Shown here piece after piece: positions 16,918-61,400 of a DNA stretch of 64,000 nucleotides. Each line of letters opens with the position of its first letter. The stretch's first letter is position 1. The notes under the pieces are model-generated. The model searched no databases and had not been told where the DNA came from. It was given only the letters and a program-made list of their open reading frames with translations. Position numbers and translations under genes: made by a program. The DNA is from a virus, in IMG/VR virus record IMGVR_UViG_2917587430_000001, positions 25,228 through 89,227 of that record. One strand, given 5' to 3'.

Positions 16918-16932
16918 GTTGATGTTAAAGTC

Positions 16933-35254: not shown

Positions 35255-35714
35255 CACCTCAACCTGTTCATAGAGGTATGCATTTGAAAATTATCTGTTT
35301 GAGTGCAAAGTTCTAAGGATCTTGGCAGGCTAAAGACGTGGTAGTAACCTTTGAACAGCTTTGGGCGATCGCCCTTTACGTTTCAAACTCAATTAGCAAC
35401 TTCAACCTTGATTCAACATAGCGATCGCACACCTTAATTTCAGTTGTCGAGTCATCCAAAGTTTTTCACTAAGACTGAAGCTTCAAGCGCTTCTTGCAGG
35501 TTCAGGTGCTTTAACCCTGCCAGACTTTCCCTTGCTCTTACCCAGTCCTAGGTTGTCAGGTTTGCCTACGTTCATGGTCTGCATTCCACTTAGTTGATTT
35601 CATTTGGAAGGATTCTGCCGATCCAGCTAGATCGTTTATTATTCAGAATCATTCTGTCGATCCACCTGTTTTGGAGTGATATACAGAATCGTTCCGTCTA
35701 ATCAATAGTTAGAC
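35248..35714 (+). repeat. attI-platform repeat, copy D (complete), with attI-like site at 35696-35714
   Basis: Runs from attC core GTTGTGC to GTCTAAT-CAATA-GTTAGAC. Confidence 0.85.
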
Positions 35715-41757: not shown

Positions 41758-41842
41758 CCCCAACTCTACGTTGGAGCCGACGAACACCGTTGGCCCGACG
41801 ACGCGAATAAGCGGCATTCGCGGCTCAACTCCGCTGTTATGC
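41758..41842 (+). other. attC site
   Basis: CCCCAAC-TCTACGTTGGAGCCGAC...GCGGCTCAACTCCGCT-GTTATGC. Confidence 0.85.
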
Positions 41843-42124
41843 CGCTTATTCCTTGCTGGGGCACAGCTGAAAGATTTTCTGGAGGCGTTGAGGATTGGGG
41901 GACTATAGGGTTAGTGGTGCAAGAGCTAAAGATGGTTGTTCAGGGGCATCGGCCATTGAGTATTAGTGTTATCTATAATACAGTTTGAGCGATGAGTATT
42001 GAGGGGTTGATGCATTAGCCTGTGGTGCCCCTGTACTACACAGTTGTCGTTTCATAGCACAATGTTGCAAAATGAGAGAAATTCGGTTTGCCGAGTGATT
42101 TTTTACACCCTCACCCTTGCGCTT

Positions 42125-43135: not shown

Positions 43136-43159
43136 TAATTTTAGGATTGGTAAATACTT

Positions 43160-43651
43160 ATGTTTTTTCTGCTTCCTTTAGTTGGTGCGGCAGTTGGTGC
43201 AGCAGTTGGTGCTCTTGTTACTCATGCTAGCGGCGAGAAAGATAGACAGGCGGCAGAGCATCATAGAAAAGTTGCTAATGACTTGACCAACAAATTCTCA
43301 AATTTAGAGAAAAGATACAGCGAATATGCCGATAAGAGTAAGAGTCAAATTGATGACTTGACCAGGCAACACGCTTTAGATGAAGCAGAGAAAGATCTTC
43401 TGCGTTTAGCCATCAGGTTGCAGCAGAGCTTGTATATGCTTATGTGGGATATAGATAATAAGCCTACATATGATGCTTTGATAGATTTTGAACAAGCTGT
43501 TGAGGCAACTAACAGAGTTTTATCCGAGTTAAGCGAGGAGAAAATTCAAATCCCAAGTAAGTACTTTTCTCGCAACCTGACACGGGTTAAGAGGCGTGAA
43601 AAGCTCGCTGAAACGAGGCAGAAGAAAATAGAAAGTAGCAGCGCGGCATAG
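43160..43651 (+). CDS. Gene cassette: membrane-anchored coiled-coil partner protein
   Basis: MFFLLPLVGAAVGAAVGALV; the stop lies in attC R''. Confidence 0.7.
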   Translation: MFFLLPLVGAAVGAAVGALVTHASGEKDRQAAEHHRKVANDLTNKFSNLEKRYSEYADKSKSQIDDLTRQHALDEAEKDLLRLAIRLQQSLYMLMWDIDNKPTYDALIDFEQAVEATNRVLSELSEEKIQIPSKYFSRNLTRVKRREKLAETRQKKIESSSAA

Positions 43652-43732
43652 CAATTCGGGTGCAGCGGATTGACCGAAGCCGCTTGGGTTAGATGCAAAG
43701 ACCTCGGCAACCGCTGACCCGACTCGTTAGGT
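43646..43732 (+). other. attC site
   Basis: GCATAGC-AATTCGGGTGCAGCGGATTG...CAACCGCTGACCCGACTC-GTTAGGT. Confidence 0.85.
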
Positions 43733-43790
43733 GGAATTTGAGACATCAATTAGAACATTAAATACCTCTAAAGTTGAGGCTAGTACAAAA

Positions 43791-45635
43791 ATGTTAAAAG
43801 ACAAAGCGGTGATCATTATCGCAGTATCAAAATATGCTGGTACTTATGACAATCTTCCAGGGGCAATAACAAGTGCTAGGAGACTGCGTGAATGGGCTGA
43901 ACAGTCTGACGAAGACTGTAAATATAAAGTTCTTTATCTAGCTGATGACGTCTTTGAGAAGATTGACGTTCAACTCGTGCGCGAACAAGTTAGCCAATTT
44001 GTTAACAGTAACTTCATAGATCGACTCATCGTCTATTTCGCTGGACATGGCATTGTTCGCTCAGCTGGTGACCAGTTTTGGCTTCTTACCAATGCGGCGC
44101 AGGATCTACGAGAAGGAATTGATGTAGAAGCCTTTAGGCGGGGTTTACTAAAATGCAATATTGGTAATGCTGATTTTGCAGGTCAATTGTGCATTATTGG
44201 TGATGCCTGTCGAAATACTGGGCGAGATGCTATCGAATTTTACGGTGATCCAATTCTGACTTCGACAGCAAAGAGGAATAGTCGTATTCAGCTTGATAAG
44301 TTTCTGTCCACAGGGCTTGGCAATTACTCATTCCAAATCAATCAAATTGGTAGTCAAAGTGCGTACTGTCTGTTTTCGGAGGTGATGCTGAGTGCCTTGC
44401 GAGGCGAAGTTAAGGAAGCAATTGACACGGAAGACCATCGATTCAAACCAGTTATCACAAATCATAAACTAGCTGAATATTTAGAGAAAGAGGTCAGAAG
44501 TCGTGCTGCTGCAATTGGAGAGGAGATGGAGCCTGATCTGCTTACTGGAATCCATCCTCCCCATAACTTCTACAAAAGATTAAAGGAACCGATTTCTGAT
44601 GTAATAGCTAGTTCGCAAGATTCGCAACTGGCGGCAGCAATCCAAATGGCAATACATGATCCCCATCCAGAAAGCAGTAATGAGAAACTTACAGCAGCTC
44701 AAGAAGGTCGTAAACAAACTCTTTTGGGATTGAAAGACCGTATTAAATTGAACTATTCCCGACTATCAATCAGAGTTAGACGTCGTTTCGATCCTAATAA
44801 TCCTAATTTTTTAACTGTTAGTGATTTTCGCCCAAACTTTATAGCTGTACCTCGTAGTGCAACGGTTGAAGTGGCACATCGGGAAGAAACACTCTATGAG
44901 ATACTAGCGTTTAACTGTTACGATTCGCCTATTTTAATCCACCAAGATGGACAATGGATAATTATTCCTAATTACCTCAATGTTGTTGCTGTCATATCTC
45001 GCAATTTACCTGGCGACATCTTATTCTTTAAGACTGGACATTTTACTAAACGAGATGAAGTGTGGGATACATATTTAAGTGATTTTTCAAATCTTGCTGG
45101 CAGTGTTCCATTACGCGCCGCAGAGGCTAAAAAATTTGCAGATAGGGTTAGAGTGGGAAAAGAGGAATATCCTCATCAAGCAGTGACAGCAGGATATCTT
45201 TATGAATTTTCCAACGACTACGATAATATTGCTAGAACTGCACATTATATGGCTAGAAACACAGATTCGGTGCCATTCGATCTAGCACTACTATGTGCAG
45301 ACAAAATATGGTGGAGTAAAGAAAATGGCAGGTTGGTCGCATTTGCAGATCTGCCAGCCGTTGAACCCTCACAACCGAGTGAGCAAAAGGATAATCGCCC
45401 CTATTATGCTAGACGTGAATTTGCGGCACACAAGAATGTCCAACTTTGGGGAATTACACCAATCTTTCGTCAGGGTTGGAGTTTTATGCAGACTGAACTA
45501 TACCTTGATATTCCAGACAAGATCAGGTTAATTAGCGAAAATATGATTGGGAGATCGGCAGCAAGCTTAACAGATGAGGGACTTAGAATGTTTCTTAAAG
45601 CCTTTGACTATCGAGTTATTGAGATTGACACCTAA
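43791..45635 (+). CDS. Gene cassette: caspase-family (C14) peptidase with uncharacterised C-terminal domain
   Basis: VIIIAVSKY...LPGA...VYFAGHG...IIGDACR (His-Cys dyad). Confidence 0.85.
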   Translation: MLKDKAVIIIAVSKYAGTYDNLPGAITSARRLREWAEQSDEDCKYKVLYLADDVFEKIDVQLVREQVSQFVNSNFIDRLIVYFAGHGIVRSAGDQFWLLTNAAQDLREGIDVEAFRRGLLKCNIGNADFAGQLCIIGDACRNTGRDAIEFYGDPILTSTAKRNSRIQLDKFLSTGLGNYSFQINQIGSQSAYCLFSEVMLSALRGEVKEAIDTEDHRFKPVITNHKLAEYLEKEVRSRAAAIGEEMEPDLLTGIHPPHNFYKRLKEPISDVIASSQDSQLAAAIQMAIHDPHPESSNEKLTAAQEGRKQTLLGLKDRIKLNYSRLSIRVRRRFDPNNPNFLTVSDFRPNFIAVPRSATVEVAHREETLYEILAFNCYDSPILIHQDGQWIIIPNYLNVVAVISRNLPGDILFFKTGHFTKRDEVWDTYLSDFSNLAGSVPLRAAEAKKFADRVRVGKEEYPHQAVTAGYLYEFSNDYDNIARTAHYMARNTDSVPFDLALLCADKIWWSKENGRLVAFADLPAVEPSQPSEQKDNRPYYARREFAAHKNVQLWGITPIFRQGWSFMQTELYLDIPDKIRLISENMIGRSAASLTDEGLRMFLKAFDYRVIEIDT

Positions 45636-45691
45636 CAACTAATACATCAACGAAACATTCTACCTTTCAATACTATTTGGAGCATTTGTTA

Positions 45692-46597
45692 ATGACAACA
45701 GTTCTTTTAATTCACGGCATTAATAATCAGGGTAATTCAAAGGATAACATTGAAAAAACGTGGAGTTATGCCCTTAGAAGCAGTGCTGCTACCGCAGGAC
45801 TAACGATACCTGATGATGTGAAATTTATTGCAGCGTTCTATGGCGACGTACTCTTTAACGAAACAGAATCCTGGAACAAGAACAAACCTACTTCAAGTCC
45901 TATGAGTGTCGAATCTCCGGACGAAGATTATGCGGATGATGAAGTTGCGGCTTTATATCTTGAATTCCAGCAAAAATATGGTATCGGCGATGAGCAAGTT
46001 TCTCGGGAACTTGAGGCTGAAGATAATCTTCAAGCTCAAAAGCGCATGGCTAAAGGAATTCATAAGAGGTGGTTAAAGGCGATAGCGAAAGCTTTGGAAA
46101 CGGTACTTCCTTCAAAGGGTAAACGAGTAGCAGCAGCTTTTATAAGTCAAGCTGCCGCATATCTTCATAAGCCCGGTTTAAAGGAAAAAGTTGACGATCT
46201 CGTTATGACCCAAGTGATAGACGGACTACCAAAAGATGAAAAGGTTGTTATTATTAGTCATTCCCTTGGCACTATTGTAGCTTATGACTTAATGCGCCGT
46301 CTTAGGCATCAAGTAAAGGTTGGGTTGCTGCTAACTGCCGGTTCACCTCTTGGGATTGAGATAGTCAAACGTAGGCTGGGTACACCGCTTATCTGCCTTC
46401 CAAATGTAGATAAATGGGTAAATATATCAGATGATGAAGACTTTGTTGCCTTCCAAACAAAGCTAACTAGTACGACTTTTGGATGTGATAAGATTGTAAA
46501 TATTGATCAGTTAGATAATGGCGATGAAGATGCACACGATATTCTGAAATATCTTGCACATGATATTGTCGCAAAAGAAATTGTGTTGAATCTCTAA
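45692..46597 (+). CDS. Alpha/beta-hydrolase (lipase-like)
   Basis: LIHGI...ISHSLG nucleophile elbow, LTAGSPL, W.N..D.EDFV, terminal AH...YL. Confidence 0.85.
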   Translation: MTTVLLIHGINNQGNSKDNIEKTWSYALRSSAATAGLTIPDDVKFIAAFYGDVLFNETESWNKNKPTSSPMSVESPDEDYADDEVAALYLEFQQKYGIGDEQVSRELEAEDNLQAQKRMAKGIHKRWLKAIAKALETVLPSKGKRVAAAFISQAAAYLHKPGLKEKVDDLVMTQVIDGLPKDEKVVIISHSLGTIVAYDLMRRLRHQVKVGLLLTAGSPLGIEIVKRRLGTPLICLPNVDKWVNISDDEDFVAFQTKLTSTTFGCDKIVNIDQLDNGDEDAHDILKYLAHDIVAKEIVLNL

Positions 46598-46657
46598 CTG
46601 GACAAACAAATTAGTCGATTGTGAACATTTAGTTTGACATTTCCACTACACTATTCC

Positions 46658-46743
46658 ACCTAACCCTTACATGCACCGGACGGACTGGACACCTCTGGCT
46701 TCGTTTAAGTGACATCTGACGCCGTTGATGTCCGCCGTTAGCA
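46658..46743 (+). other. attC site
   Basis: ACCTAAC-CCTTACATGCACCGGACG...GACGCCGTTGATGTCCGCC-GTTAGCA. Confidence 0.85.
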
Positions 46744-47205
46744 GTTAACATCATTGCCGAAAATGACCCTTCTCGGCATTGTTTGATTCAATGCCCATAT
46801 CAAAAGCCTCTTTCAGACATAGATTTAGGCTTTACTACTTACAGTACTCAATGGTCATTTTCGGCAGAGTTAAGCTGTTCAGACGTGGAAGGGGCAATCG
46901 CTCTATCTTCTACTGATACCTACCCATAAAAACGGGTAGCTTCCCGACTATCTCAAAGCCAAAGGAGGCGGGATGATACATCCATATCAAAGCCGCCGAC
47001 CACGCTTTACAAGGTCGGCATATAGAAAAACAAAGCCCTGACCGGTAAGGTTAGGGCTTATTGTTTTGGTCAACGTCTTAAATAGCGTGACTAGGGCAGC
47101 AGGGCGATCGCCCAACTCCTTCTCAATAAAGCCGATTGGGTCATTGGTGTCCCGTGTCACCATTGCCGCAACTCCAGCTCACCCCTAGCCCGAATTTGAT
47201 CCCCT

Positions 47206-47724
47206 TCAAGCGACAGCAAGGACATTGCGTGGGTTCTCTCCAGCGGCTAATCTCTCAAGCTGCTCATCTGAGAGATTTGAATAATCAATTTTGACGTTGA
47301 GCTTGGTTTCCTCCTTCTCACCTAGAGCAGTTTTTCCAATCTTTTGAAGTCGCTCTAGCGCCTTGGCTAACTCATCCAACTGTTTGGGAGATGGTAGATC
47401 ATTGCCTTTTGCCACTCCTTCAGTTGCTTCTTTAAGTTGCATGAAAACAAGATTCAAGCCGCCTTTCGCAAGTTCATAGCACTGGGCATCCCATGCAGCT
47501 AAGTCGCCCGCTAAAGCAGTCGATTTGTGTTCCTGGCGTTTATCTGAAACAGTTTGAACAAAACGCTCAGCCTCAACTTTCCAATGCTCTTTAGCTGCTT
47601 TTTCCCGCAGATATGAGGGCGAACAGGTATACTTCGCAGCCAATTGCTCTAAGGTTGGACGAGACTTCTCATCCGGAGCCTGGACGTATTCATCTTTGAT
47701 GACCTGCCAGTTGTGCTTCGCCAC
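47206..47724 (-). CDS. Terminase small subunit-like protein
   Basis: HNWQVIKDEYV...TLEQLAAKY...LREKAAKEHW HTH; C-terminal DYSNLSDEQLERLA. Confidence 0.65.
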   Translation of the reverse strand: MAKHNWQVIKDEYVQAPDEKSRPTLEQLAAKYTCSPSYLREKAAKEHWKVEAERFVQTVSDKRQEHKSTALAGDLAAWDAQCYELAKGGLNLVFMQLKEATEGVAKGNDLPSPKQLDELAKALERLQKIGKTALGEKEETKLNVKIDYSNLSDEQLERLAAGENPRNVLAVA

Positions 47725-48238
47725 TTTCCCTCAGCTTCCTGCAATTTCCGACTTTCTGTCGGATCGTTCCCACGCCTTGTGGGGTGGGGTTTTCACGGAC
47801 ATGGAAAAGGGTAGGGCGATCGCATTCAAGTCGGTTAAAGGCAACTGTTCTGGTAAAAATGCTGATCTTGCCAAAGATCTTTAACTTTCTGAAGTTATAA
47901 AGGGAACACCAGATCTTCATCGACCAGTGCAACAGATGGCAAAAATCTTTTCAAGGCGAACTGAGGAACAGGAAAAATTTCGTCAGGATCTATGCTTGGT
48001 TATTCAATCTGAAGAAGAGCGCAGGATTCAAGAGCAGTCTGCTGAACGTCTTGTCATGCCTATGACTTTAAGTACGTGGGAAGACGACTGGAAGAGTTGA
48101 TTTCAAGCTGCTTACCGGCAGTATAACGATTCACTCGGGTTGGATCTAAGGGTTTAACATTGCGGAAGCTAACATATCAGCTTCATTCAGAAGGAGCTGG
48201 GCGAGTAGCTGACGGAAGAACAGCGGGCGATCGCGGCG

Positions 48239-48329
48239 GTATAACATATTTCCTGTTGCGCCCGACCATTGAAAAGTTATCGGTAGATTATTCGAGGTTG
48301 TCTACAGTGGGTTAAGCGGAACGTTAGAC
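48239..48329 (+). other. attC site (degenerate)
   Basis: GTATAAC...TTGCGCCCGACCATTG...CAGTGGGTTAAGCGGAAC-GTTAGAC. Confidence 0.6.
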
Positions 48330-48433
48330 CACAAGATCTCGGTTGGAATGGTGCTGTAACCGCTCTAAGTATCAATAGGGAAACCGCTCTAAGTGCTAGC
48401 TTTGAATGGATGATTGCAATAAGGAAAAATTAG

Positions 48434-48931
48434 GTGTCAAAAGGCATCCCTGCAAAGCTTAAAAAGGTTTCAGTTAAACTCCCATTTGGTATTGGTGGAG
48501 CAGAATGGGAAGCCGACTCGACAGAACGCAAAGCGGCTTGGGCGATTTATGTTGAGTTAGTTACTCGCATCGCTGTTCAAGACCTTGATAAAGACCAAGG
48601 ACTTTTGCGAGAGTTGCTAAACTCGCTACATAGTTTGTTTGGTATTACACGTCAAATCCTGCGGGAAGCTGGTCCAGATGTTGGTGCATCATACGAATCA
48701 GTTGGGGGTACAGCAATTACTGTCCTTAACAGAGGACTACGCCCTTTTTTGTCTACATGGCATCCTGCACTTCAGGCATGGGAGGCGCAACGCCCTGTAA
48801 ATCTTAGTCCAAAAGAGCATGAGAAGAATTGGATTCATGAACCTAAATTACGTAGTGAATTAAAATCCCTTAATCTAGATTTAGAGCAATATGCTAATGC
48901 GTTAGCAGAGATAGCTGGAGTTAAGTGTTGA
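48434..48931 (+). CDS. Gene cassette: conserved-looking helical hypothetical protein
   Basis: ERKAAWAIYVELVTRIA...LNRGLRPFLSTWHP; co-cassette with SIR2-TIR. Confidence 0.7.
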   Translation: MSKGIPAKLKKVSVKLPFGIGGAEWEADSTERKAAWAIYVELVTRIAVQDLDKDQGLLRELLNSLHSLFGITRQILREAGPDVGASYESVGGTAITVLNRGLRPFLSTWHPALQAWEAQRPVNLSPKEHEKNWIHEPKLRSELKSLNLDLEQYANALAEIAGVKC

Positions 48932-49018
48932 TAGGCTAGTAGGCGCTTGACAACCTCTCAGAATAGTTAAAGATGGTATTAATCACATTATTAGAATTAG
49001 TAATTTATCTTTAGCAGA

Positions 49019-50266
49019 ATGAATGAGCTAATCATACAAAGACTAAAAAGAAAGTCACGCGGAAATCAAGTGGCAATCGCAGTCAGCAGTTCGCTGTCAG
49101 AAGAAAAATTTTCTATTCCAAGTCTAGCGAAAAAAATAATTAGCCACTGCAATTTAGAATTTGAAGTTCAGGAATTGACACAATATTTCAAAGTATGGAA
49201 CGCCCTGATTGAAGAAGCTGAGAAAAAAGTAAGTAGAGATTATTTGGTTAAATTGGTGAGAGATTTCGTATCCACCGCAGAGCCTCTTCCGGTGCATTAT
49301 AAAATTGCATCACTACCTATTTCAAACTTTATAGATGCTACTTTCGATCGATCACTGTATAAAGCTCTTATTCAATTGAATAAAAATCCAATCATTCATG
49401 ATTGGAATCATCAATCTATTGGGGCATGGAAGCAAAGTAATCCAAATCAACCCAGTATATTCTTCTTGTTCTGCAATTTAAGTCCACCTCATCCTTGGCA
49501 TGGAGTCTATGAACCCATCAGTAGAGCTGGCAGTAGGGGTGATCAAATTCAGATAATGAATATTGCAGAGATGCTCAATGATAAAGACTTGATTCTCGCA
49601 GGATTTACCTCTCACGAGGCAGAATTTACCCTACACTTATCTTCATTAATCAGTTCTTGCAATAAAGTAGTTAATTGTCTTGATTATATTGATGATTCTA
49701 CTTACTGGTGTCAAAGAGGGGTTTGCATCCTTAATAAGGAAGCTGAGCAAGTAATCGATTACTTACTTCCCTATGAGATGGGTGAGTACACGTTTTGGGA
49801 TATGCCTATACCGAGGAGAGAAATAATGGATGTAGTGCGAGACAAGCAGTATGACTGCTTTATCAGTCATTTCAGTGGCGATAAACCTTTTGCAAAGAGA
49901 TTATCTCAAGATCTTGAGATGCGTGGTCTTTATGTCTGGGTTGACGAGAACGAAATTGATATTGGGGATTCTCTTTCAGATAAAATTCAAGATGGTTTAG
50001 GAAGCTCATATTCGTTTGCAATTATCCTATCCAATGAATCCATTTCTAGACCTTGGGTCAAGGAAGAATTAAGAGCAGCATATGCTTTAAGATTAGCGGG
50101 AGAATCTAAGATACTGCCAATTTTGTACAAGGAATGTGATATTCCTATACTTCTGAAAGACTACAGATATGCAGATTTTAGAAGTGAAGGTCGGTATCAT
50201 GAGGAGATTCCTACTTTGGAACGCTCTATTAGAAATGCTATGCGCCAAGCGAGGGGCAAGAAATAG
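49019..50266 (+). CDS. Gene cassette: SIR2-like + TIR domain protein
   Basis: LPISNFIDATFDRSLYKAL (SIR2-like); YDCFISH..DK..A.RL..DL..RGL.VW.D...WVKEEL (TIR with catalytic Glu). Confidence 0.8.
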   Translation: MNELIIQRLKRKSRGNQVAIAVSSSLSEEKFSIPSLAKKIISHCNLEFEVQELTQYFKVWNALIEEAEKKVSRDYLVKLVRDFVSTAEPLPVHYKIASLPISNFIDATFDRSLYKALIQLNKNPIIHDWNHQSIGAWKQSNPNQPSIFFLFCNLSPPHPWHGVYEPISRAGSRGDQIQIMNIAEMLNDKDLILAGFTSHEAEFTLHLSSLISSCNKVVNCLDYIDDSTYWCQRGVCILNKEAEQVIDYLLPYEMGEYTFWDMPIPRREIMDVVRDKQYDCFISHFSGDKPFAKRLSQDLEMRGLYVWVDENEIDIGDSLSDKIQDGLGSSYSFAIILSNESISRPWVKEELRAAYALRLAGESKILPILYKECDIPILLKDYRYADFRSEGRYHEEIPTLERSIRNAMRQARGKK

Positions 50267-50300
50267 TTGACGCAGTTCTATAGTTTCATAAGCTCAGGCG

Positions 50301-50386
50301 TTCTAACAATTTAAATGCAGGCGGACGTTGAAAGCCACTCTGCTTAGTTCGAGGTTACTTGCCGTCACTGATTCAAACCGTTAGCC
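50301..50386 (+). other. attC site
   Basis: TTCTAAC-AATTTAAATGCAGGCGGACG...CCGTCACTGATTCAAACC-GTTAGCC. Confidence 0.8.
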
Positions 50387-50599
50387 TGTTTTGTTCCGCA
50401 TTGAAGGCAGTATTTATTAGCTAGCAAACGTAAACCGCGTCGAAGCCAGCAGGCGGGCGATCGCTACTTCCTAGTTTGGATTCTTTGATTCGTTTAATTG
50501 TCTAACCGTTGCTTTCAGGGAGAGTTTGCCGATTATAGCTTCGCGCCATTCTTTAATATTGCTTTGAATGAAGAGCAGGAAACACAGATCAAATGTCTT

Positions 50600-50682
50600 C
50601 TAGAACAGCAGAAGCCATCTGCGATGATAACCTTCATCCTCCCACGGCAAGCTTCCATCTGTCCGCTGCATTAAAGTTAGAC
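50600..50682 (-). other. attC site (right arm degenerate)
   Basis: Clear left arm GTCTAAC-TTTAATGCAGCGGAC; probable core GTTCTAG. Confidence 0.5.
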
Positions 50683-50755
50683 TGCCCAACGTGGCATCAG
50701 GCTTCATTAGGTAAAATTGGATGGGGAATCCTAAATGCTCCCTAAGATGAACACT

Positions 50756-50893
50756 CTACAAGCTATTCAGTTTTGTGATTGGCTGGGACTCGTTTGCGAA
50801 GAGCAAGTAACAAATGGCTAGTGTTACACCTAGTACAGCTAATGTTCTACGGATTTTTAGAACGAGGTTGATTTCATCTATGATTTTTTTCAT
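50756..50893 (-). CDS. 45-aa single-TM peptide in a gene cassette
   Basis: Strong RBS AAGGAGGT; MKKIIDEINLVLKIRRTLAVLGVTLAICYLLFANESQPITKLNSL. Confidence 0.55.
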   Translation of the reverse strand: MKKIIDEINLVLKIRRTLAVLGVTLAICYLLFANESQPITKLNSL

Positions 50894-51243
50894 AGTTTTT
50901 TACCTCCTTCGCCCCCATCTGCAGGAGGCAAGCTCTTCGATCTTTTCCGTAGCTTGATCACCACGTACACGATCGGGGTAGCCATTTGCGCCATACCGTT
51001 AGCCTTCGCAACGAAGTCCCTCCCCTCGGAGAGGCTTTTGGCAATCAGAAGCAAGAACTTGGTTCATGATTGCCTTGATTTACAAAATATCACAATCAAA
51101 GAATTGGTCTGAGGTAGGACATCAAGGATCTATTGGTGTGATAACCGAACATTCTCAAAGTCCTCTTCTCATGCTGTTTATGCCAATAAGTCTTGTACCT
51201 TCAGTAGTCAGCCTTTAAGCTACTACCCCAGAGATACCCAGCA

Positions 51244-51328
51244 ATCTAACGTTCGCAATCACCGGACACAGATCACTTTTACTAAAAACAGCATACTTCA
51301 AAGTTTCGATGCATTGTGATTGTTGGGT
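51244..51328 (-). other. attC site
   Basis: ACCCAAC-AATCACAATGCATCGAAAC...GTCCGGTGATTGCGAAC-GTTAGAT. Confidence 0.8.
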
Positions 51329-51345
51329 GGCGGAACACTGTTGTC

Positions 51346-52197
51346 CTATCCGTTCGCCTCTTTTTCAGCGTCTATTTCAAGACGTATGCCCTTGCCAGGG
51401 ATAAATATCAATTTACCGATTGTCTTCCGAGGCGCTCTCCGCTCAAGCTCAGATTTCATCTCGATTTCCAGTTCGCTGACGTGTTCCAACATATGAACGA
51501 GATCTGTTCCAATCTCATACGCGTCGCGATGAAGCTCGGCCCGCGATTCAATAGCCGTCCGGATTTGCAGATCTGGCATACCGGAATGCGCAGCCTTACT
51601 GTTTCGGCGTCTCCCCGCAATTCGCAAGTGATCCTTCAGACAGTGTTCGTATTTGAGGCAATGCCCGTATCTGTGAGCAAGCGAACCCAAAATCGATATC
51701 TTGTGCGCTGGCTTTTTCTCCCGTCGGCACTCTTTACAATCTGTAGCAAGCAACGCACCAAGGCTTGCTTTGAAGTAGTAGTGTTTCGGAATATTTGTAC
51801 AAAAGGCTAGTTGCTTGATGAGCGCTTCACATAACCTCGTGACATAAAGAACTAGCTCATTGTAGATCCGTATCCGTTGAATCTCGGCATCGAGAGCATT
51901 CATGGGCTCTTGGCTCGTTGAGATGGAATGCGAGTCATTAATTACATGACTCATGACTCCGGCGAGAGCCGACGCTTCATAGGTGTGCAGGTTCGTGAAC
52001 GCACCTTCAGCGGTGCGATTTGAGAAAACTTCAAAGGTGCCTTCTTGCTTTAGCCACTTCCGAAATTCAGTTGCAATTGGATAGAAGTTAATGCCGATAA
52101 CGTCGGCGCTGTTCCAAATATAAGCTTCCTTGCGAAACTCCCATTCAAAATGAAATGCCATATCCAGCTGGTCATGATCTGCGTGCTCAATGCCCAA
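51346..52197 (-). CDS. Gene cassette: HEPN-like hypothetical protein with CxxC
   Basis: TTG start after TAAGGAGG; RRNSKAAH and DCKEC. Confidence 0.55.
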   Translation of the reverse strand: MGIEHADHDQLDMAFHFEWEFRKEAYIWNSADVIGINFYPIATEFRKWLKQEGTFEVFSNRTAEGAFTNLHTYEASALAGVMSHVINDSHSISTSQEPMNALDAEIQRIRIYNELVLYVTRLCEALIKQLAFCTNIPKHYYFKASLGALLATDCKECRREKKPAHKISILGSLAHRYGHCLKYEHCLKDHLRIAGRRRNSKAAHSGMPDLQIRTAIESRAELHRDAYEIGTDLVHMLEHVSELEIEMKSELERRAPRKTIGKLIFIPGKGIRLEIDAEKEANG

Positions 52198-52230
52198 GAT
52201 ATCGATCCTCCTTAACAGCGCGTCTTTCCA

Positions 52231-52315
52231 CCCGAAGGTTTGCTTGAGCGGTTGCAAACGACCTTCACCATAAACCAAGCTTTTTCGGCAATCCGCTCCA
52301 GGGGAATTGTTAGCC
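52231..52315 (-). other. attC site (core mutated to CTT)
   Basis: GGCTAAC-AATTCCCCTGGAGCGGATTGC...GCAACCGCTCAAGCAAAC-CTTCGGG. Confidence 0.75.
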
Positions 52316-52380
52316 TGCTGGCAGAGTGAGTTTAGCCAATTCTCAAAACATTTAAAGATTTTACTTTTGCTAGGTTAGAA

Positions 52381-53895
52381 CTAAGAAAATGCTGGCTTTC
52401 CATCACCTTCAGGACCACCTAATGGACAATCAATATCTCTAATTGGATAACCGTAAGTAGAGTAATCGATATAATGATCATTGGCTTCAGTTATTTTTAA
52501 CAATAACCTGTTGAATAAAGAATATAAAGCACCTGAAGTCATCGACAGCCTATGACAGTCCAGAGGCTTATAGCGATGACCATGAGCAGATTTATTACGC
52601 TCTTTTAGTGCTTGTAATTCAACTCGTCCAACTTGAAGAGAGAGAAGATCAAAGAATTTTTCATACTGCATATTAGAGCTTTTTTTGTTTAAATCCTCTA
52701 GTTTTCTCTTTAAAATGTCCAAGTTCTTACTTTCAATAGATTCTTTGTCTAGAGAAGATGTAACTTCATCGAAAGTATCCATTAGTGGCTTTCTAATTTT
52801 TGTCTTCCAAACACTTTTAGGAATTAGTAAAGGCGATAACTCGTTCTCGTTAGCACAGTAGGAATCCCGCAGAGACTCTATCGCAGCACCAAAATGAACA
52901 GCTTGTACATCCAGGGGAGAGGTTAAACCTAGCCATATGAGAAAAAGTGGATATTCAATATTAATAGTTTCCATTTTAGTAGCGACGGAACTTATCATTC
53001 TAGATATTCTTTTCTCATCTAGGTACCATTCTTCTGTAGAGATTCCAAGTGAAACAGGTGGTTTACATGGGTATTTGTAAGCTCTTTCACCTAGTATATA
53101 AATTTCCCTAACAACACACCCAATGCGACCACCATCTTTACTTAGAGATGTTGAACCAACCGAAACTAACTGCCTACCAAGGGTAAAGGATAAGGCAGCT
53201 AAAATAGTTTGTTTTGTATCTTCTGAGGGCAATCTATTTTCGTTTAGGTCTTCAAACTCTACAAAACCTGGTTTATATTTTTGTGGAGCAATATCATCCA
53301 TGGTATGTCCAACTGTAAGTGACCATTTTTGATCACTCATAGTACATTCACATTTGAAATGATCTAGAGAACTATCGAAATTTTTATTAAGATCAAGTTC
53401 AAGTACACCTCCACCACTGCGCTCTCTCTTGAAGGAAGCTGAATGTTCTCTAGTTGTACACCTACTGAAAATGTATCTGTCAGCAGAAAAGTTAACAATC
53501 CACTCAACTTGGGCGACAGCTGGTAACTCACTTTGAAAAATTTCAGCTTCATTAACTTTCGCATGAATGAACAAGGGATCTGTCTCTTCTACTTGTAAAC
53601 TCTTACTCTTATTACTTGTAGAAGTTATTAGTACTCCTCTCAATCGAACTAAAACACCAGTCATAGTTTGTCCGATGGTTTCTTCTGCATAGGAGGGAGC
53701 TTCACCCGGTCGTAAATTTATGTGTTCTTCAAGCGAAAACGAACCCATGCCTTTACCAACCGCTGTCAACCGCAAATCTGCATCTCTTGAAAGGTCTATT
53801 TCAGTAATTTTTTCAGGAAAAGCTCCCCGCTGGATAACCCTGAAGCTTAAGGGAGTAGTTACAGTTTGCCATTCCAGCCAGTCTAAGTTTTCCAT
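52381..53895 (-). CDS. Gene cassette: ApeA-like C-terminal HEPN protein
   Basis: FGAAIESLR...RNKSAHG (RxxxxH) after a beta-rich N-terminus. Confidence 0.65.
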   Translation of the reverse strand: MENLDWLEWQTVTTPLSFRVIQRGAFPEKITEIDLSRDADLRLTAVGKGMGSFSLEEHINLRPGEAPSYAEETIGQTMTGVLVRLRGVLITSTSNKSKSLQVEETDPLFIHAKVNEAEIFQSELPAVAQVEWIVNFSADRYIFSRCTTREHSASFKRERSGGGVLELDLNKNFDSSLDHFKCECTMSDQKWSLTVGHTMDDIAPQKYKPGFVEFEDLNENRLPSEDTKQTILAALSFTLGRQLVSVGSTSLSKDGGRIGCVVREIYILGERAYKYPCKPPVSLGISTEEWYLDEKRISRMISSVATKMETINIEYPLFLIWLGLTSPLDVQAVHFGAAIESLRDSYCANENELSPLLIPKSVWKTKIRKPLMDTFDEVTSSLDKESIESKNLDILKRKLEDLNKKSSNMQYEKFFDLLSLQVGRVELQALKERNKSAHGHRYKPLDCHRLSMTSGALYSLFNRLLLKITEANDHYIDYSTYGYPIRDIDCPLGGPEGDGKPAFS

Positions 53896-53963
53896 TGTAT
53901 TGAAGTTGAACTACACTACTCACCAATAATAATTGGGAGTACTTTTACAAAGGGGTGAAAGCA

Positions 53964-54036
53964 GTCTAACGACTAAGATAAGTGACAATAGATATACTAA
54001 GATTTCTCAATTATTCGTTCCATCAGCTTGTTAGCT
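53964..54036 (-). other. attC site (degenerate)
   Basis: AGCTAAC-AAGCTGATGGAACG...CACTTATCTTAGTC-GTTAGAC. Confidence 0.6.
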
Positions 54037-54053
54037 GGCTGGGCAACACCAAA

Positions 54054-54974
54054 TCACTGATCATCAATCAAATCGCTACACAATTCACAAAACAAATCGA
54101 CATCATCTACTGAATTTATCCAACTAGGATATCTAGAATCATCAATCTCTTTTTCCCACTCGTGCAGAAAAGAAATGTATGGTTGTTCGCATTTAATACA
54201 ATAGTTAATTGCGTATTCTGCCAAACAGTTAAAGCAATGAGCAACCCTAAGATATTTTGCAGTTGGGTCAGGAACAGCAACTGCTTCTTCGTCACAAATT
54301 CCACACGTAAAGTATTGATAATCAATCCATTTTTCTTTTGGGTCTGAAATTGGTATTCCTTCTTTCTCCATGTGTTGGATATAGAACAAATAAGACATAG
54401 ACAGAGTTCGATAAGTACTTTGACTTTCAAGAGCATCAATCTCTCCTCCATCTTCAAAAAGCTCTTCTTTACGGGCTTCGTCAAGTTTATCTAGTTCAGT
54501 TTTAAGGCTCAAGCCTAATTCCTCAGCCACAAACGTATCTAGAAAAATAAAAGCAGTACCTAAAAATTCTTTAACTTCATTTGATTTGAGAGCAGCTTCT
54601 CTATGTTCAATGCAGTTTCTAGCTTTTCGCAAAGCATTTAGTGCCCCACCCAGCTTGTATTTTCCTGATTCTTGACGCTCCGCATACTGAAATAGTGGCA
54701 GCTTGACTTCTCTGACTAAAAGATCGATCGCTTCATCAGAGCCTACTGTACTACCACTTTTTCGGTTTCGATAGATCAATGACTCATCATGTTTAGCCAA
54801 CCTCGCTTTTAGAAAAAGTTCAACAGCGTGAAAAACATGCAGAATCACATATTTCCAATCCGTATTTCTTCTACCGTGAAGATGGTGCTCTACACCATGT
54901 ACAAGAGAATCCATTGCGTTCTCTTCAAGCTTTACGATTAATCTCTGCTGGCTTGAGGTCGTTTCGTTGGTCAT
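54054..54974 (-). CDS. Gene cassette: HEPN-like N-terminus plus zinc ribbons
   Basis: YVILHVFHAVELFLKARL...RNCIEH; C-terminal CxxC pairs. Confidence 0.65.
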   Translation of the reverse strand: MTNETTSSQQRLIVKLEENAMDSLVHGVEHHLHGRRNTDWKYVILHVFHAVELFLKARLAKHDESLIYRNRKSGSTVGSDEAIDLLVREVKLPLFQYAERQESGKYKLGGALNALRKARNCIEHREAALKSNEVKEFLGTAFIFLDTFVAEELGLSLKTELDKLDEARKEELFEDGGEIDALESQSTYRTLSMSYLFYIQHMEKEGIPISDPKEKWIDYQYFTCGICDEEAVAVPDPTAKYLRVAHCFNCLAEYAINYCIKCEQPYISFLHEWEKEIDDSRYPSWINSVDDVDLFCELCSDLIDDQ

Positions 54975-55085
54975 TTCTACTGTGTTACTGATTGATACGA
55001 CAAACTCGCGAGATAATACCTAGTTTTTCAATAACTAATGCAGAATAACTCTCCCAGTTCCGGTATTACCCAGCATTTATCCTTG

Positions 55086-55275
55086 ATGGCACAACATCCT
55101 TCCCCTTGCCTATTAGGTCAGGTACAGCAATCTATCCAACTCAAGCATTTCAGCTTAAAGACTGAGAAATCCTATATTGACTACATCCGCGATTTCATCC
55201 TGTTTCATTACAGCGGCACCTTGAAGGAATGAGGACAGATGGAACTCAAGCCTACTTGGAACTAGCTAGAAGGTT
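55086..55275 (+). pseudogene. intI: Integron integrase 5' remnant, frameshifted and truncated
   Basis: LLGQVQQSIQLKHFSLKTEKSYIDYIRDFILFH, then in a shifted frame RHLEGMRTDGTQAYLELA, matching the IntI N-terminal SAM-like domain. Confidence 0.8.
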
Positions 55276-55495
55276 TGAATACTTTCGAGGTTTAACATCG
55301 AGTTCATCTCATTAGGCAGTTGCTTCAACATACCAGCAGACGCAAATTGCATCAAATCCAGCAGGAGAGCGATCGCCCGTCAAAACGCTGCCTCAAAGAC
55401 CTCTAGTCTTTTGCATTCACTAACTTGAGGAAAGCCGCAGAATTCCCGTAATCCTTGGCGTGGGAACTCTCGGACGGAGTTTCTGAGCGTCTTCT

Positions 55496-58400
55496 GTGGC
55501 AACTACTGTTGGCGAATTAGTGCTGGAGTTGGGCTTAGACCCAACTATTTATAACGAAGGTCTGGAGAACGCGCACAAAGACGCGATCGCCATTGGTCAG
55601 GAGATAGAGGCAAGCTTACGGACATCTCTACCAGTCCTTACGCCCAAAGTTGATGACTCAGCTCTAACGAAACTGAATAAGCATTATGACCTTAAAGAAC
55701 GCCATGCCAAGCAGGTCAACCGCTACCTTTCTCAGAACCCGCTCAAAGTCAAAGTTGATTTCTCTCAACTGAACCAGCTTGAGCGCAAATTAGACAGGCT
55801 TGAGCGACGCAGAACCATTGCCTCAATTAGCACTCAAGCTAGCGGCAGTTCGGGGGGTGACTCTAACTCTCAACTTGCTGAGATGATCGGCAAGGCAGTT
55901 GCACGAAATCTTAGACCGGGTTTGGCAGGACGCGCAGCGGGGTTAGTGGGGAATGTTCTAGCAACTCCCGGCAGGGTAGCTGGCAGAACACTGGCTGGGG
56001 TTGCTGAAGGGTTGATGTTCGGCGTAACGCAGGAGGTCAGCCGCAACTTAGGCAAAGGGTTATCAAAAGCAATTGAGAATAGCCTTTCTAGTTCTGTAGG
56101 CAGTTCAGAGCTATTAGGGGAGAAGGTTGGAGGGGCGATCGCTCAATCAATGGGGCGATCGATGTCCAGCAAGTTTAAGGATTTACCTGAGAACTTAAAC
56201 AACCTGGTAGATGGATTAGAAGTTGACTCTAAGCTAAGGCGTAAGTTCAAGCAAGCGATTACTGAAATAGAAGATTTTCAGAAGCAGGCTGGAGAACTGC
56301 TAACCGAAACTTTGGGCGGACAACCAGCAATTCAACAAGAAGCGTTATATCAGCGTGGAACTCAATCTCGCGATCGCCGGCGCAAAACTCCTATAACTCA
56401 AGACCAGGCAGCAGAAGAGTGGCGCGAGTCGTTACGGACTAGGGATCGGGTACAGGCTTTAGCAGCCACCAGGACAACTAAAAACAGTCAACAACTCCAA
56501 CGCTTGAGGGGTGAATACGGCGGCACTCAGCGACAGTTTGCAGAACTGGAGAACCAGATTCAACAAGCTCAACAGTCTGGTGCTCCAGCCGAAGAAATCG
56601 AAGGGCTGACAACTCAGCTCAGGCGAACTGGAGCTAAGCTGCAAGGCTTGGCTCAAGCAATGCAGAACGTTATTAAGTACCAAGAAACTGTTGATAAGGC
56701 TGTAGTTGAAGCACAACAACGTGTCAGGGCAGGCTATCAACGAGTACAGACTCTAGCTCCAAAACCTCAGCCTAGAACTTATGTAGATTTAGTTCGTCAA
56801 GTCACCGGCAAAGATTTAGCACCAGACAAAATTCCTCAATTGAGGATTGCAGACGCTTCACTCAAAAAATCTGGAGCGCTCAGCCAATACGACCCCGCTC
56901 GAAATGCAATCGAAGTAACTCGTAAAACTTACGAAGCGATTGAGAATAACACCCTCACTCCTCAGCAAGTTGAGATGCTGAAGGAGGAGCTAGAACATGC
57001 TGTAGATTTCGACTTTGGCTCCTTCCGTGGGCTACAAGCTGCCAAACAGAGCCGAGTAGTGGGTAAACCTGTTGTTCCTACTGCTGAGGAGTTTGCTGCG
57101 ATCGCCCCTGGACTAGCTCCCTATGCTCCAGAGCGGAGGGCACTAGAGCTAAATGCCAAAGTCAAAGCCCGTAGAGGCATGACTGCCTATGAACAAGAGT
57201 CTAAGCAAGGACTGTTGCTCAATAATGTCCCAACTCTGGCTTCTAATAAGGAGGCGATCGCTAACCAAAGAACGCAGTTGCAGGCAAAATTGCAACAGAT
57301 TGGAAAAATTAGCGCTCTAACCGGAAACGACCTATCAAAAGCACTTGAGTCTTACAACGGTTTCTTCGATTCACTTCAGCAGAAAATAGAACGAACTGTT
57401 GAAGAAATGCTGTCAGATATTGATGGCTTAGATCAGTCTAAGGTCAACTCTATCGTCCAGAAGATAAAAGGCTATTGGGGAACCGTAGAGGGATTGAATC
57501 AGAAGGTCAATCAACTACTTCAGAAACAAATTGATGATGTTTCTGTTACCTCTAACTATGACGTTTGGACGGGCAAATTAGAGCGTTCTAAAAATTCAGG
57601 CTTATCCAATCAACCTCTAGGAACGGTTGATGATAAGTTTCTAGATCCAAATTTCGATCCGTTTGCGATAGATCGTCCCCCTGTTGCAATTCCCCTTCAG
57701 TTATCCATGCCAGAGGCAGAGCTTGTACCCGTACAGATTCAGCCTAAGCAGTCTCAAGCCATATCTAACACAGGTAAAGGCTTTACAAAACCAGCACAGA
57801 AGACAATTGATGCAACTAATCAAACCATTGCAAAAGTCACTCAAGCTGCTGCTCAAACTACTCAAAGTGCGATCGCTGAAGCCCAGAAGTTAGAAAATGC
57901 TTTCTCTGGCTTGTACAAGGGGTTGCAGGACGCAATCAAGAAGGGGGATGACCAGCTTGTAAAGGCTTACGGCAACGAGCTTAAAGATATGGCAGAGACT
58001 AGCCGCTCTGCCATCAACGCTTTAGTTGAACAAGCTAAACAGTCTGGTGAGGCGTTTGGATCAGAAGCCTTAGCCAAATTGGGAGGAGTGAAAGGTAGGC
58101 TAACTCAGCGCTTCAACTTAGCTCAACGAGGTACGGCAAAATACGAGCGGAAGAGGGCTGCTGAAGGAGAAGACTTAACGGCTCAATCCTTAGACCCAGA
58201 AGCCGCTAGGGGAGTTAACAAAACCCTTCAAACTCTAAAGCGCTCAATCCACAGATCAATTGATACGCTAAATTCTCTAACTGCCAGTCTCGCCAATGTT
58301 GAGCCACAAGAGAGCTTTGGAAAAACCCTTCAGAAAGCAGCGGTTTCGGAGCGTGGCAAAGACCTTTTAGTCAATACTGGCGGATTCATCGCATCTAACC

Positions 58401-61400
58401 TTGCCAGCCAGCAGGGACTGTTGCCAGAACTGGGAGGCGATTTGATTGGAGCACTTGTTACTCGACAAGTCGTTGAAGCTGGCATTGCTGGCAAGGATGC
58501 TTACAGCAAGCTTCAGAACGACGAAACCTTTAAAGCAGCAGATGCTCTGAAGAAGTTTTCGATGATCCTTACCGAGGTCACCGCAAAGCTGCAAAGTTCT
58601 GAATTTGGTGAGGAGCAGAACGGGGCGTTATTTGGTGACATTGCAGGGTTTACTGTCGGCAATTTGATTAAGGAGTTGCCTAAAACCATTGCTCCAGGTC
58701 TACCAGGAATGGATCTGCTAGGTCAGATACCCGGTAGAGGAGCACTGGCAGCTTCTCAGGCAGTTCCAATGCTCTCGAAGATGAGGGCGCAGATTACTCA
58801 GCAATTACAGTCCGGTCAATACAGTGGCGAAGAGTTGAAAGCTCAACGCCTAGACCTCAGCTACAAAGGGCTGAAACCCAATAAGCAGATGAATGATGCC
58901 GAGAGAGTCTTTCTTGAGCACATCATTGAGCTGTTGGACGATGCGATTGTCAAAGCAAGACAATTTGACCTTGCTTTTGGCATGTTAGACGCGCCTTCAA
59001 TGAGGCAGTTTGAAGAGAGCCTTGAGGGAGTAAACGAAGCGCTGGACTCAGACGGCACAAAGATTGTTGCTCAGGTTCAGAAAACTATTGCTGATTACGA
59101 AAGAACTGTTCAAGAGTTAGAGAAAAGCTACGCTGAGCGATTCCAAACCTCACAGGATGACCTTGATGAAACATTCCGCTATCGCGAAGCTTATGCCGAG
59201 TTACTTGGAGATGGACAAGACCCACAGGAGTTAGACCTGGCGATCGTTCCTCCCAGACCACCTGAGGGTGACGGTTTCTTTGGAGCACTGAGAGGAGATC
59301 TTGACGATATTGTTCAACGGCTCGGCGGCTTAAAGAACGCCGCAGGAGTGGCGTTCAAGGCAATCGTTGGGTTTGCGGCAGCTAGCATTGTTCTCCCATT
59401 TTTGACCGAGCTTGCGACCTCTGCTCTGGACGTAGCAACGGAGATGGAAGGGCTAGAGCGTCGGTTTAAGTTTGCCTATGGGTCGATGGCGGAGGGGCGT
59501 GCTGTCATAGCAGAGGTTAGAACCGATGCAAATGCGCTCGGAGCTGACCTGAGACAGGCATTGGAGGGGCGTGCTCAGTTGGCGATCGCTGCGAAGGGTA
59601 CGGCGGCACAAGGCGAAATCGCAGACCAAACAGCCAGAGCAATCACGCAGGCGGGTACTGTGTATGGACTGAACCCAGAGCGACAGCAAAATGCAAATCT
59701 GGCAGTCGCCCAGATGTTTCAAAAATCGGTGATCAGCGCAGAAGAACTGCGTGGGCAGCTCTCGGAGACGGGGCTAGGTAACCCTATTCAGACAATGGCG
59801 GACGCAGTGGGTGTTGACGTTGCTGAGTTGAACAAAATGATGGAAAGACGGGAATTGGTAATCGAAGAGGTATTTCCTAAATTTTCGGCACAACTTAACG
59901 CTGAAACTTCTGTTGCTATTCCTGACCTAGCATCGTCTTCTCAAGCTTCGATCAACCGCTTCAATAACTCAATGTTGAACGTGCAGGAGAGCATTGGTAA
60001 GCCTCTGCTACCTGTTCGCAATACAGGATTAGATGTTCTTGCAAGCAGTATGGATTTAGCGTCCAACTCAGCCGGAACATTGGTGAAGACATTTGGGGCG
60101 ATCGCACTGACCCCAGTTGTCAAAATGTTGTTTGATGTTGCTAAGTCAGCGATCGCCTCAGCTCAAGGAATGACACTGGCTGGAGTTGGAGTTAAAACGC
60201 TTGACTTCAGCATGAAATCGCTTGCTAGCACTGCAAAGTTTGTGAAAGGGGCTTTAGGAGCAGTTGCGCTTCCTGCTGCCATTTTCTTGGCGATCGATGT
60301 CGTTAGCTCTTTTGGCAAAGCCTTCAAGGACGCAGGTGGAGAGGTGCGAGAATTTGCAGAGCAAGGCGTAACCAGTTTGCAAAAATATGACGAAGCTCTA
60401 GCCAATCTACAAAATCGTTCTGGTAGAGGTTTAACACCCCCCGAACTACCACAGCCGACTGGAGTTCAAACCGAGTTTGGCGACACAGGTGAAACACTAA
60501 TGAGTGGACCGCTCGGTGCCTTTGAGCGATTTATTCAGAATGACTCGATTGGCAAGGCGATCGGAACATACATGCCTCTTAGAACGTATGGGCAAGTTCA
60601 GGCGGAGCAACAATCTATTGCCCAAAGCGACTTTTTGCTTAATACCAGCGATACTCGCGGACGACTTTTAGGGGAACTTCAGAGGTATGACCTAAACCCT
60701 GACGGAGAAGGGTTAATTGCTCAAGTTCGAGGCATTGATCAGCAGTTAGAGGAAACCCAGGGACAACGACGGGCACTGTTGCCGGGAGATATAGAAGGAC
60801 GTAGAGCGCTCGACAAGCAAATAGACGAGTTGTTGCAACAGCGTGAAGAACCTGGTCGGCTGTTGGCACAGTTGAAACAGCTAAATTTGAGCAAAATTGA
60901 GCAGCTTCAGCAGCAGATTCAGGCAGCTTCAGCAGCAGGTGACACCGAGTCTTTAAGCAGGCTTCAAAGCGAGTTAGACGCTACTACTGCGGCAGTAGAC
61001 AAGCTCAACGGCTTGATTGGCAAAACTCCTGATGTGCTGGGACGGTTGGCGCGTGGGTTTGCTGAAATTCAGGCTGAGCTGGAACAACTGAACATGGAGC
61101 TGGATCGCAGCGCTGCCTCTAATCGGAAAGCGATCGCCTCTGCCCAAATCTCGGGTGCAACGCCGGGAGAGCTTGAGTTTGCCCGGAGTTTGGCAGATCA
61201 AACCAATATGCGCGGAAGGATAGGCGCGAACCAGTCTGCAATCGATCGGATTCGCAGCACGGTAACAGGTAGTCAGGAAACAATGGATGCTTTGAGTTCT
61301 GTAGGAATCAACTCCATTGACCAGATTAATCCTGCTGACCTGACTGGAAGAATCCAAAACATGGAGGACTCCACTCAAAAGAGTCTGATTGAGCAGGCGA

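Follow-up and report, generated by a model that had tools for sequence, protein, structure and literature searches.

Integron gene cassettes without an integrase of their own are known from bacteria and from phages. Clusters of attC sites lacking integron integrases (CALINs) are defined by at least 2 attC sites spaced by less than 4 kb and by the absence of an integron integrase in the vicinity, and 15 of 279 CALINs lie near intI pseudogenes (Cury et al. 2016, PMC4889954). Integrons and CALINs also occur in phages (Qi et al. 2023, PMC9892861), where integrase-less attC arrays are found and where the arrays of Shewanella prophage M16-3 each have their own attI; the survey in that report covers 10,705 phage genomes and does not mention a cyanobacterial phage. 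Nemergut et al. (2008, PMC2426708) found about one third of intI genes to be pseudogenes, many of which go back to duplication within a genome. In filamentous cyanobacteria, chromosomal integrons (for example, five loci from Leptolyngbyaceae, Nodosilinea, Halomicronema and relatives) encode a 322-aa IntI next to an attI of ~290 nt with its crossover site. Here we analyzed a locus at positions 50590 to 55378 of a 64,000-nucleotide stretch of DNA, hereafter the window, which corresponds to bases 25228-89227 of the 113,599-bp IMG/VR virus record IMGVR_UViG_2917587430_000001. The locus has the structure of an integron and originated from one: four minus-strand cassettes with attC sites are headed by a divergent, plus-strand 5' piece of intI. 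We conclude that it is probably a degenerate integron, that is, a CALIN-type four-cassette array capped by a dead, duplicated attI-intI platform, carried by a temperate phage-like element.

Compared with the systems described above, the array looks like a CALIN in having at least 2 attC sites within 4 kb, attC-ended cassettes on one strand, no functional IntI, and an intI remnant beside it. It differs from those CALINs in that the remnant consists of 62 N-terminal codons (the screen of Cury et al. sought the C-terminal domain), is present in four copies, and resides in a phage-like element. With the phage arrays it shares the lack of an integrase, but our element carries several arrays, a truncated intI/attI stub caps each of them, and its attC sites are of the cyanobacterial family. 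As in the genomes studied by Nemergut et al., intI pseudogenes are frequent and duplicated within one genome, but in our replicon every duplicate is a dead stub and a live intI is lacking. The chromosomal cyanobacterial integrons share the IntI clade, the attC family and the relative orientation of intI and cassettes with our locus, whereas only 48 nt of attI and 62 codons of intI are left here. Thus, a CALIN with a neighboring intI pseudogene is already known in bacteria and phages, while three points are new: the setting in a cyanobacterial phage-like element, the copying of a stub that was dead beforehand, and the description of this attI family.

To identify the integrase piece we read its frames and compared it with protein profiles. 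Frame 1 from position 55086 reads MAQHPSPCLLGQVQQSIQLKHFSLKTEKSYIDYIRDFILFH; past a 1-nt deletion near 55211/55212, the +2 frame runs to ...QAYLELA, which is about residue 62 in the numbering of the ~322-aa cyanobacterial IntI consensus. The stub contains neither the catalytic residues nor the IntI-specific domain. It matches the Pfam family Phage_int_SAM_4 (E 2e-5), and its only NCBIfam matches are two integron integrase models, NF011946 (E 3e-5) and TIGR02249 (E 8.5e-5). Because the stub is short, it scores far below the TIGR02249 cut-off (265 bits). Its nearest longer relatives are 322-aa proteins annotated as integron integrases of filamentous cyanobacteria, which are 63-81% identical over the stub, and the six of these that were scanned scored 476-493 bits with TIGR02249. 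Judged by these matches, the stub is of the IntI type. This agrees with the sequence-only reading, which had proposed a frameshifted N-terminal IntI fragment and named XerC/D proteins as the alternative. No catalytic or C-terminal part of IntI was found anywhere in the 113.6-kb record with TIGR02249 or tblastn, and no IntI in the record scores above the cut-off. Beyond the truncation, the homology of this stub with two further copies described below ends at 55378, by a site of the highly iterated palindrome HIP1.

The region between the stub and the first cassette was compared with real attI sites. We located 80 cyanobacterial loci with full or partial intI (this collection was seeded with N-terminal peptides and is therefore biased towards N-terminal stubs), aligned 24 cyanobacterial intI-upstream regions, and compared 12 real attI regions with the record by BLAST. 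In the 24-region alignment, attI is a conserved segment of ~290 nt with repeated GGATAACACCC/GGTGTTATCC boxes, the distal end of which is ...TATATA directly followed by GTTAGGC. Past the GTTAGGC crossover the loci diverge, because the cassettes begin there. This gives a concrete description of the attI family of these cyanobacteria: ~290 nt, GGATAAC-type boxes and a GTTAGGC crossover. At our locus, only the proximal ~48 nt of the ~290-nt attI are left, and the distal ~240 nt together with the crossover site are missing; that no clean attI could be assigned, as was reported from the letters alone, is accounted for by this loss. The 12 attI queries matched only the four copies of the stub in the record, which retain ~45-60 nt (copy 2, our locus), ~185 nt (copy 3), ~90 nt (copy 4) or nothing (copy 1) of attI upstream of the ATG. 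The attI crossover is present in none of the four copies, and neither such a box nor a crossover motif was found elsewhere in the record. A repeat without open reading frames (window 35248-35714 and other copies) was considered as the source of the missing attI; this was unsupported, as it has no BLAST similarity to the 80 integron loci, and if this repeat is an attI, it is of another type than that of the stub's IntI clade. The parent integron that the sequence-only reading had suggested looking for was not found: the closest attI/intI DNA among the 80 loci is only 68-86% identical.

We next describe the attC sites. A strict RYYYAAC...GTTRRRY hairpin scan detected only attC3 in the region and was replaced by covariance models. 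The first model was seeded with five obvious attC sites and used to search 67 intI loci, where it gave 68 matches at E up to 1; all matches with E < 1e-5 were on the intI-coding (+) strand, and those whose positions were checked lie upstream of intI. The second model, R2, was built from the 35 best matches, which are attC sites in chromosomal cyanobacterial integrons; this record contributed none. An unfiltered scan of the whole window with R2 yielded 13 sites with E < 1e-4. Three of these, attC1 to attC3, are in our array and all lie on the + strand, as a + strand intI at the head of minus-strand cassettes predicts. R2 scores are 33-41 bits for these three sites and reach 73 bits elsewhere in the window. 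The fourth site, attC4, ends the minus-strand array and is degenerate: by eye its R'' box GTCTAAC and its L boxes are recognizable, and its R' box has decayed to GTTCTAG. The spacing of attC sites in the array is 0.6-1.7 kb. The four divergent cassettes of the earlier reading are thereby borne out by three strong attC sites and one degenerate site on the predicted strand. Because the R' box of attC2 is degenerate, cassettes 2 and 3 are probably fused.

Circular cassettes opened between G and TT carry a classical signature, the complementarity of the cassette start to the cassette's own R'' box. On the cassette strand, the first six bases of each of the four cassettes are complementary to the R'' box of that cassette: TTAGTT against AGCTAA in cassette 1 (5/6), TTAGAC against GGCTAA in cassette 2 (5/6), TTCGGGT against ACCCAA in cassette 3 (a match with a 1-nt insertion), and TTAGAT against GTCTAA in cassette 4 (5/6). 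Cassette 1 starts exactly at the boundary of homology with the other stub copies (55038/55039), that with copies 3 and 4 lying at 55038, and the uninterrupted copies carry GTT at this point. This suggests that the boundary of cassette 1 may have arisen by an IntI-type event at a secondary site inside attI.

The surroundings of the locus were examined across the record. It encodes a major tail protein, two tape-measure proteins of 2645 and 2653 aa, a phage-type tyrosine integrase and two LexA/CI-like repressors, and HIP1 sites (GCGATCGC) are numerous in it; because of these phage, repressor and integrase genes and the many HIP1 sites, we regard the record as a temperate phage-like element of a cyanobacterium. 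Searches with TIGR02249 and tblastn detected four N-terminal IntI pieces in it and no C-terminal one. Copies 1 to 3 have the same junction, ...AYL.LA followed by RRFEYFRGLTSSSSH and a stop (RRFEYF), and then share ~100 nt up to a HIP1 site, while their lesions differ from copy to copy (copy 2 is frameshifted, copy 3 has stop codons). Copies 1 and 3 occupy equivalent places in a module that runs from a tape-measure gene through a cassette array and the stub to a lexA-like gene, and copy 2 immediately precedes the second tape-measure gene. Each of the three copies heads a different array. The attC sites of the arrays by copies 1 and 3 are at record 14538-14627 and at record 89485, 90526 and 92650, respectively, and these arrays have no cassette in common with the studied array. 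The modules lose their homology at the stop codon of the tape-measure gene and regain it within the stub, and the arrays in between are wholly different. The copies are 84-90% identical pairwise in BLAST blocks, with a divergence K of ~0.1-0.2 among the three that share one junction. The lexA-like paralogues have a similar synonymous divergence (dS 0.20), whereas that of the tape-measure paralogues is much higher (dS 0.93). Because copies 1 to 3 have one junction, low divergence and different arrays, the stub was already truncated when it was multiplied, and the arrays behind the copies have diverged completely since then, by turnover or replacement. With four copies, three of them heading different arrays, the stub is a duplicated module and not a unique fossil. 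Copy 4 (region record 106792-106952, window 81565-81725) consists of 90 nt of proximal attI and 22 intI codons. A minus-strand gene of 1351 aa follows 136 nt downstream, there is no attC in the vicinity, and on the right the copy is interrupted by another dispersed repeat (also at window 27983-28112).

Coordinates of the features of the integron-derived locus and of the stub copies (window positions unless marked as record positions)
Feature	Position	Strand	Basis and remarks
Proximal attI remnant, ~48 nt	55038..55085	+	One GGATAAC-type box, AGAATAAC; attI alignment, BLAST, four-copy alignment
intI stub, IntI residues 1 to ~62 of ~322	55086..55275	+	Frame reading, profile and homologue matches
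Post-truncation sequence, common to stub copies 1-3	55276..55378	+	HIP1 site GCGATCGC at 55369-55376 near its end
attC1, bottom strand on +	53961..54039	+	R2 32.8 bits, E 7e-6; 79 nt; top-strand R'' AGCTAAC, R' GTTAGAC
attC2	52227..52318	+	R2 39.1 bits, E 2e-7; R'' GGCTAAC; R' degenerate (CTTCGGGT instead of GTTRRRY)
attC3	51241..51331	+	R2 41.4 bits, E 5e-8; R'' ACCCAAC, R' GTTAGAT
attC4, degenerate	50590..50688	+	Partial R2 match 50617-50671, 14.3 bits, E 0.26
Cassette 1 open reading frame, 306 aa	54054..54974	-	PADLOC PDC-S64 E 5.7e-12; DUF3644 E 9.5e-6
Cassette 2 open reading frame, 504 aa	52381..53895	-	ApeA-like architecture by Atlas, alignment and fold
Cassette 3 open reading frame, 283 aa, TTG start at 52197	51346..52197	-	AAGGAGG ribosome-binding site, homologue length
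Cassette 4, overlapping open reading frames of 54 aa and 45 aa	50756..51054	-	Reading of open reading frames
Last attC of the converging plus-strand array	50298..50389	-	R2 37.7 bits
Stub copy 1	record 15969-16091		IntI residues 19-59
Stub copy 2 (studied locus)	record 80313-80477		IntI residues 1-55
Stub copy 3	record 92940-93110		IntI residues 1-57
Stub copy 4	record 106887-106952		IntI residues 1-22

Having no integrase and no attI crossover, the locus is unable to recombine alone. For the same two reasons, the description of the locus as a complete integron in the sequence-only reading had to be given up. Under the degenerate-integron interpretation, the platform would combine the terminal ~48 nt of attI with the initial 62 codons of intI, both from the integron family of filamentous cyanobacteria, and it would have been truncated once and then spread within the element to the four copies, of which three head different arrays. 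Gain, loss and exchange of cassettes would be brought about by a host chromosomal IntI acting in trans on the intact attC1 and attC3, or by homologous recombination. Part of the array would already be fixed, because attC2 and attC4 have lost their R' box. The cargo would consist of putative RNases that are DUF3644/PDC-S64-like, ApeA-like and Cys-rich HEPN-like, which are most likely abortive-infection or exclusion genes serving the lysogen or the phage.

The cargo predictions rest on motifs, profiles and fold models, with HEPN defined as a four-helix up-and-down bundle that carries an Rx4-6H motif where helix 3 ends. Anantharaman et al. (2013, PMC3710099) treat DUF3644 as a HEPN family and report HEPN genes as integron cassettes. 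The cassette 1 protein has an N-terminal DUF3644/PDC-S64-like domain with the motif RNCIEH at residue 119 and a Cys-rich, zinc-ribbon-like C-terminal region. In cassette 2, R433-N434...H438 (RNKSAH) is invariant in the family alignment of 19 homologues. Its features show an Atlas similarity of 0.97-0.98 to the ApeA_NTD1/HEPN_Apea clusters, and in its AlphaFold2 model (predicted local distance difference test score, pLDDT, 84.9) the top VIA-align matches of residues 305-472 are HEPN domains (Z 9.5-7.8), while the N-terminal beta domains resemble tail tube/Hcp proteins (Z ~7). ApeA is a single-gene HEPN anti-phage protein (bioRxiv 10.64898/2026.01.26.701840; PMC3710099), and cassette 2 resembles it in having a mostly-beta N-terminus of ~300 aa followed by HEPN with RNxxxH; it differs in that the likeness lies in language-model features, fold and motif only, with no match to a Pfam or PADLOC ApeA model. 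One homologue with 34% identity bears the source name ApeA. Foldseek against the PDB gave nothing at E <= 0.001, and no homologue of cassette 2 was found in viral contigs. At most, cassette 2 may work like ApeA. The start of cassette 3 was re-set to the TTG at 52197 because the longer frame of 310 aa (51346-52278) overlaps attC2; its nearest homologues are likewise 283 aa long and 87-89% identical, one of them from Cyanobacteria bacterium FACHB-471. The protein is helical, R198...H204 (RNSKAAH) and four Cys are invariant in its alignment, and the top fold matches of its AlphaFold2 model (pLDDT 83.9) are mostly HEPN (Z 8.1-6.8). It was not detected in 401 sampled cyanobacterial genomes, and none of the cassette proteins has a homologue in the 80 integron loci. 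The RNx3-5H motif present in each of the three proteins, RNCIEH, RNKSAH and RNSKAAH, fits the assignment of cassettes 1 to 3 as likely HEPN-type putative RNases. The two open reading frames of cassette 4 gave no family matches and could encode a small membrane toxin or a peptide pair; the 45-aa frame (window 50756-50893, minus strand) has a strong, near-perfect ribosome-binding site, AAGGAGGT, and one hydrophobic helix.

Several results weigh against the degenerate-integron interpretation or parts of it. Folded as single-stranded DNA, the four attC sites reach -8 to -11 kcal/mol (z -0.1 to -1.8), no better than shuffled sequences, and the canonical hairpin is not the best fold of any of them: attC1 forms a weak stem (-8.3 kcal/mol, z -1.8), only the L stem forms in attC2, and attC4 gives no hairpin. 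Five chromosomal attC sites reached -10 to -18 kcal/mol, with the canonical hairpin as the best fold in 5/5. Present-day recombination of the attC sites of our array may thus be poor. No trans-acting IntI and no host were identified, and no close relatives of the element were found in viral or metagenome contigs in which cassette turnover could be watched. The two diverged tape-measure modules mean that the record may be an assembly chimera. A simple scan of 54800-55600 detected no sigma-70-like promoter, although cyanobacterial promoters may escape such a scan. With respect to the cargo, neither cassette 2 nor its 19 homologues match Pfam, cassette 2 matches neither PADLOC nor the ApeA_NTD1/HEPN_Apea profiles, and cassette 3 gave nothing in Pfam. 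The HEPN assignments rest on motifs, PADLOC and Atlas leads and fold Z scores that are middling for cassettes 2 and 3, within the range of generic helical bundles.

Among the other explanations, the one that survives best is that the stub is kept because it is useful, as an array head with IntI-binding boxes, as a promoter for the cassettes, the lexA-like genes or the tape-measure genes, or as a homology arm for array exchange. We regard this as unlikely. It would fit the position of three copies at array heads, the two paralogous places where wholly different arrays lie between a conserved tape-measure stop codon and the stub, and the location of copies 1 and 3 directly upstream of lexA-like genes. 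It would also fit the composition of five cyanobacterial genomes, in which 19 N-terminal-only IntI stubs outnumber 7 full-length genes and orphan C-terminal pieces are nearly absent; these numbers make N-terminal stubs common in the likely host group, but the collection favors such stubs through its N-terminal seeds. However, no segment longer than ~20 nt is common to all four copies, no open reading frame is conserved (copies 2 and 3 each have their own frameshift or stops), the divergence between copies looks neutral, the promoter scan was negative, and the chromosomal truncation points are scattered rather than fixed. A truncation hot spot near codon 60 was considered for the chromosomal stubs and rejected, as they end at many different codons. 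The stubs of filamentous cyanobacteria often have attC arrays upstream, and two chromosomal cases are internal deletions that retain residues 1-58 and 228-314, or 1-63 and 265-314.

More doubtful still is the capture and freezing proposed in the sequence-only reading, according to which the phage acquired a piece of a host integron in a single event and the deletion of most of intI then froze it, leaving the stub as a unique passive relic. Such a relic would agree with the layout, with the loss of a working integrase and of the attI crossover, and with the R' decay in attC2 and attC4; decay and integron origin are the part of this proposal that we retain. Single capture followed by freezing does not agree with four copies of the stub, three of them with one truncation junction and each heading a different array, and their divergence, close to that of the lexA-like genes and far below that of the tape-measure genes, points to spread after the break. 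Lastly, an assembly artefact in which repeated attC or stub sequences linked the phage contig to host chromosomal integron DNA or to another, related phage would suit a metagenome-derived record with two tape-measure genes, many internal repeats and no close relative to confirm its architecture, but it is highly improbable given attC arrays at several separate places between phage genes on one contig, two tape-measure genes that are intact and under purifying selection, and junctions that consist of unique sequence and not of repeat-to-repeat joins.

The neighborhood of the locus showed additional features. Our array meets a converging plus-strand array tail to tail at ~50390-50590, with a HIP1 site at 50457; the converging array (window 41755-50389) has five minus-strand attC sites (41755, 43643, 46655, 48236 and 50298) and carries a TIR-domain cassette at 49019-50266. 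The tape-measure genes are located at record 6505-14466 (2653 aa) and at window 55496-63433, that is, record 80723-88660 (2645 aa). Both are full-length, their proteins are 85% identical, and since dN/dS is 0.11 (dS 0.93) both are under purifying selection. The second gene has no tail-chaperone genes upstream; cassette arrays lie on both sides of it, and stub copies 2 and 3 flank it in direct orientation. In viral contigs the tape-measure gene had relatives of 33-37% identity only, in metagenome contigs it had none, and a search of viral contigs for the post-truncation junction of the stub gave chance 17-mers only. The LexA/CI-like genes (record 16275-16913 and 93301-93939; 212 aa, 89% identical, dS 0.20) are both immediately preceded by an intI stub on their own strand. 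This adjacency is absent from 54 other lexA loci; relatives of the lexA-like gene are at most 53% identical, except for one 45-residue fragment at 71%, and have no neighboring intI stub. An 83-bp inverted repeat (record 6447-6529 and 16916-16998, 87% identical) reproduces the first tape-measure gene's start region just after the first lexA-like gene; its two units enclose tape-measure gene 1 with its array, stub copy 1 and lexA. Rfam had no match in 50000-56000, and a generic repeat finder gave nothing useful.

Taken as a degenerate integron, the locus offers the case of a dead integrase stub whose copies spread within a single mobile element and now stand before completely different arrays. 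This raises a testable question, namely whether phages exchange defense cassettes with host integrons through the integrase of the host alone. Integron cassettes have recently been viewed as a reservoir of anti-phage genes (bioRxiv 10.1101/2024.07.02.601686), and three HEPN-type putative RNases in a row, by a TIR cassette, fit this view. A further step, which we consider speculative and on balance improbable, is that the truncated attI-intI stub acts as a portable array head, a shared handle for swapping whole arrays of defense cassettes between host integrons and phage or between phage loci. The stub copied around the element and the N-terminal stubs of host chromosomes would then provide matching handles, and swaps would proceed through host IntI, homologous recombination or both. 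If this were true, phages would carry integron cargo without carrying an integrase.

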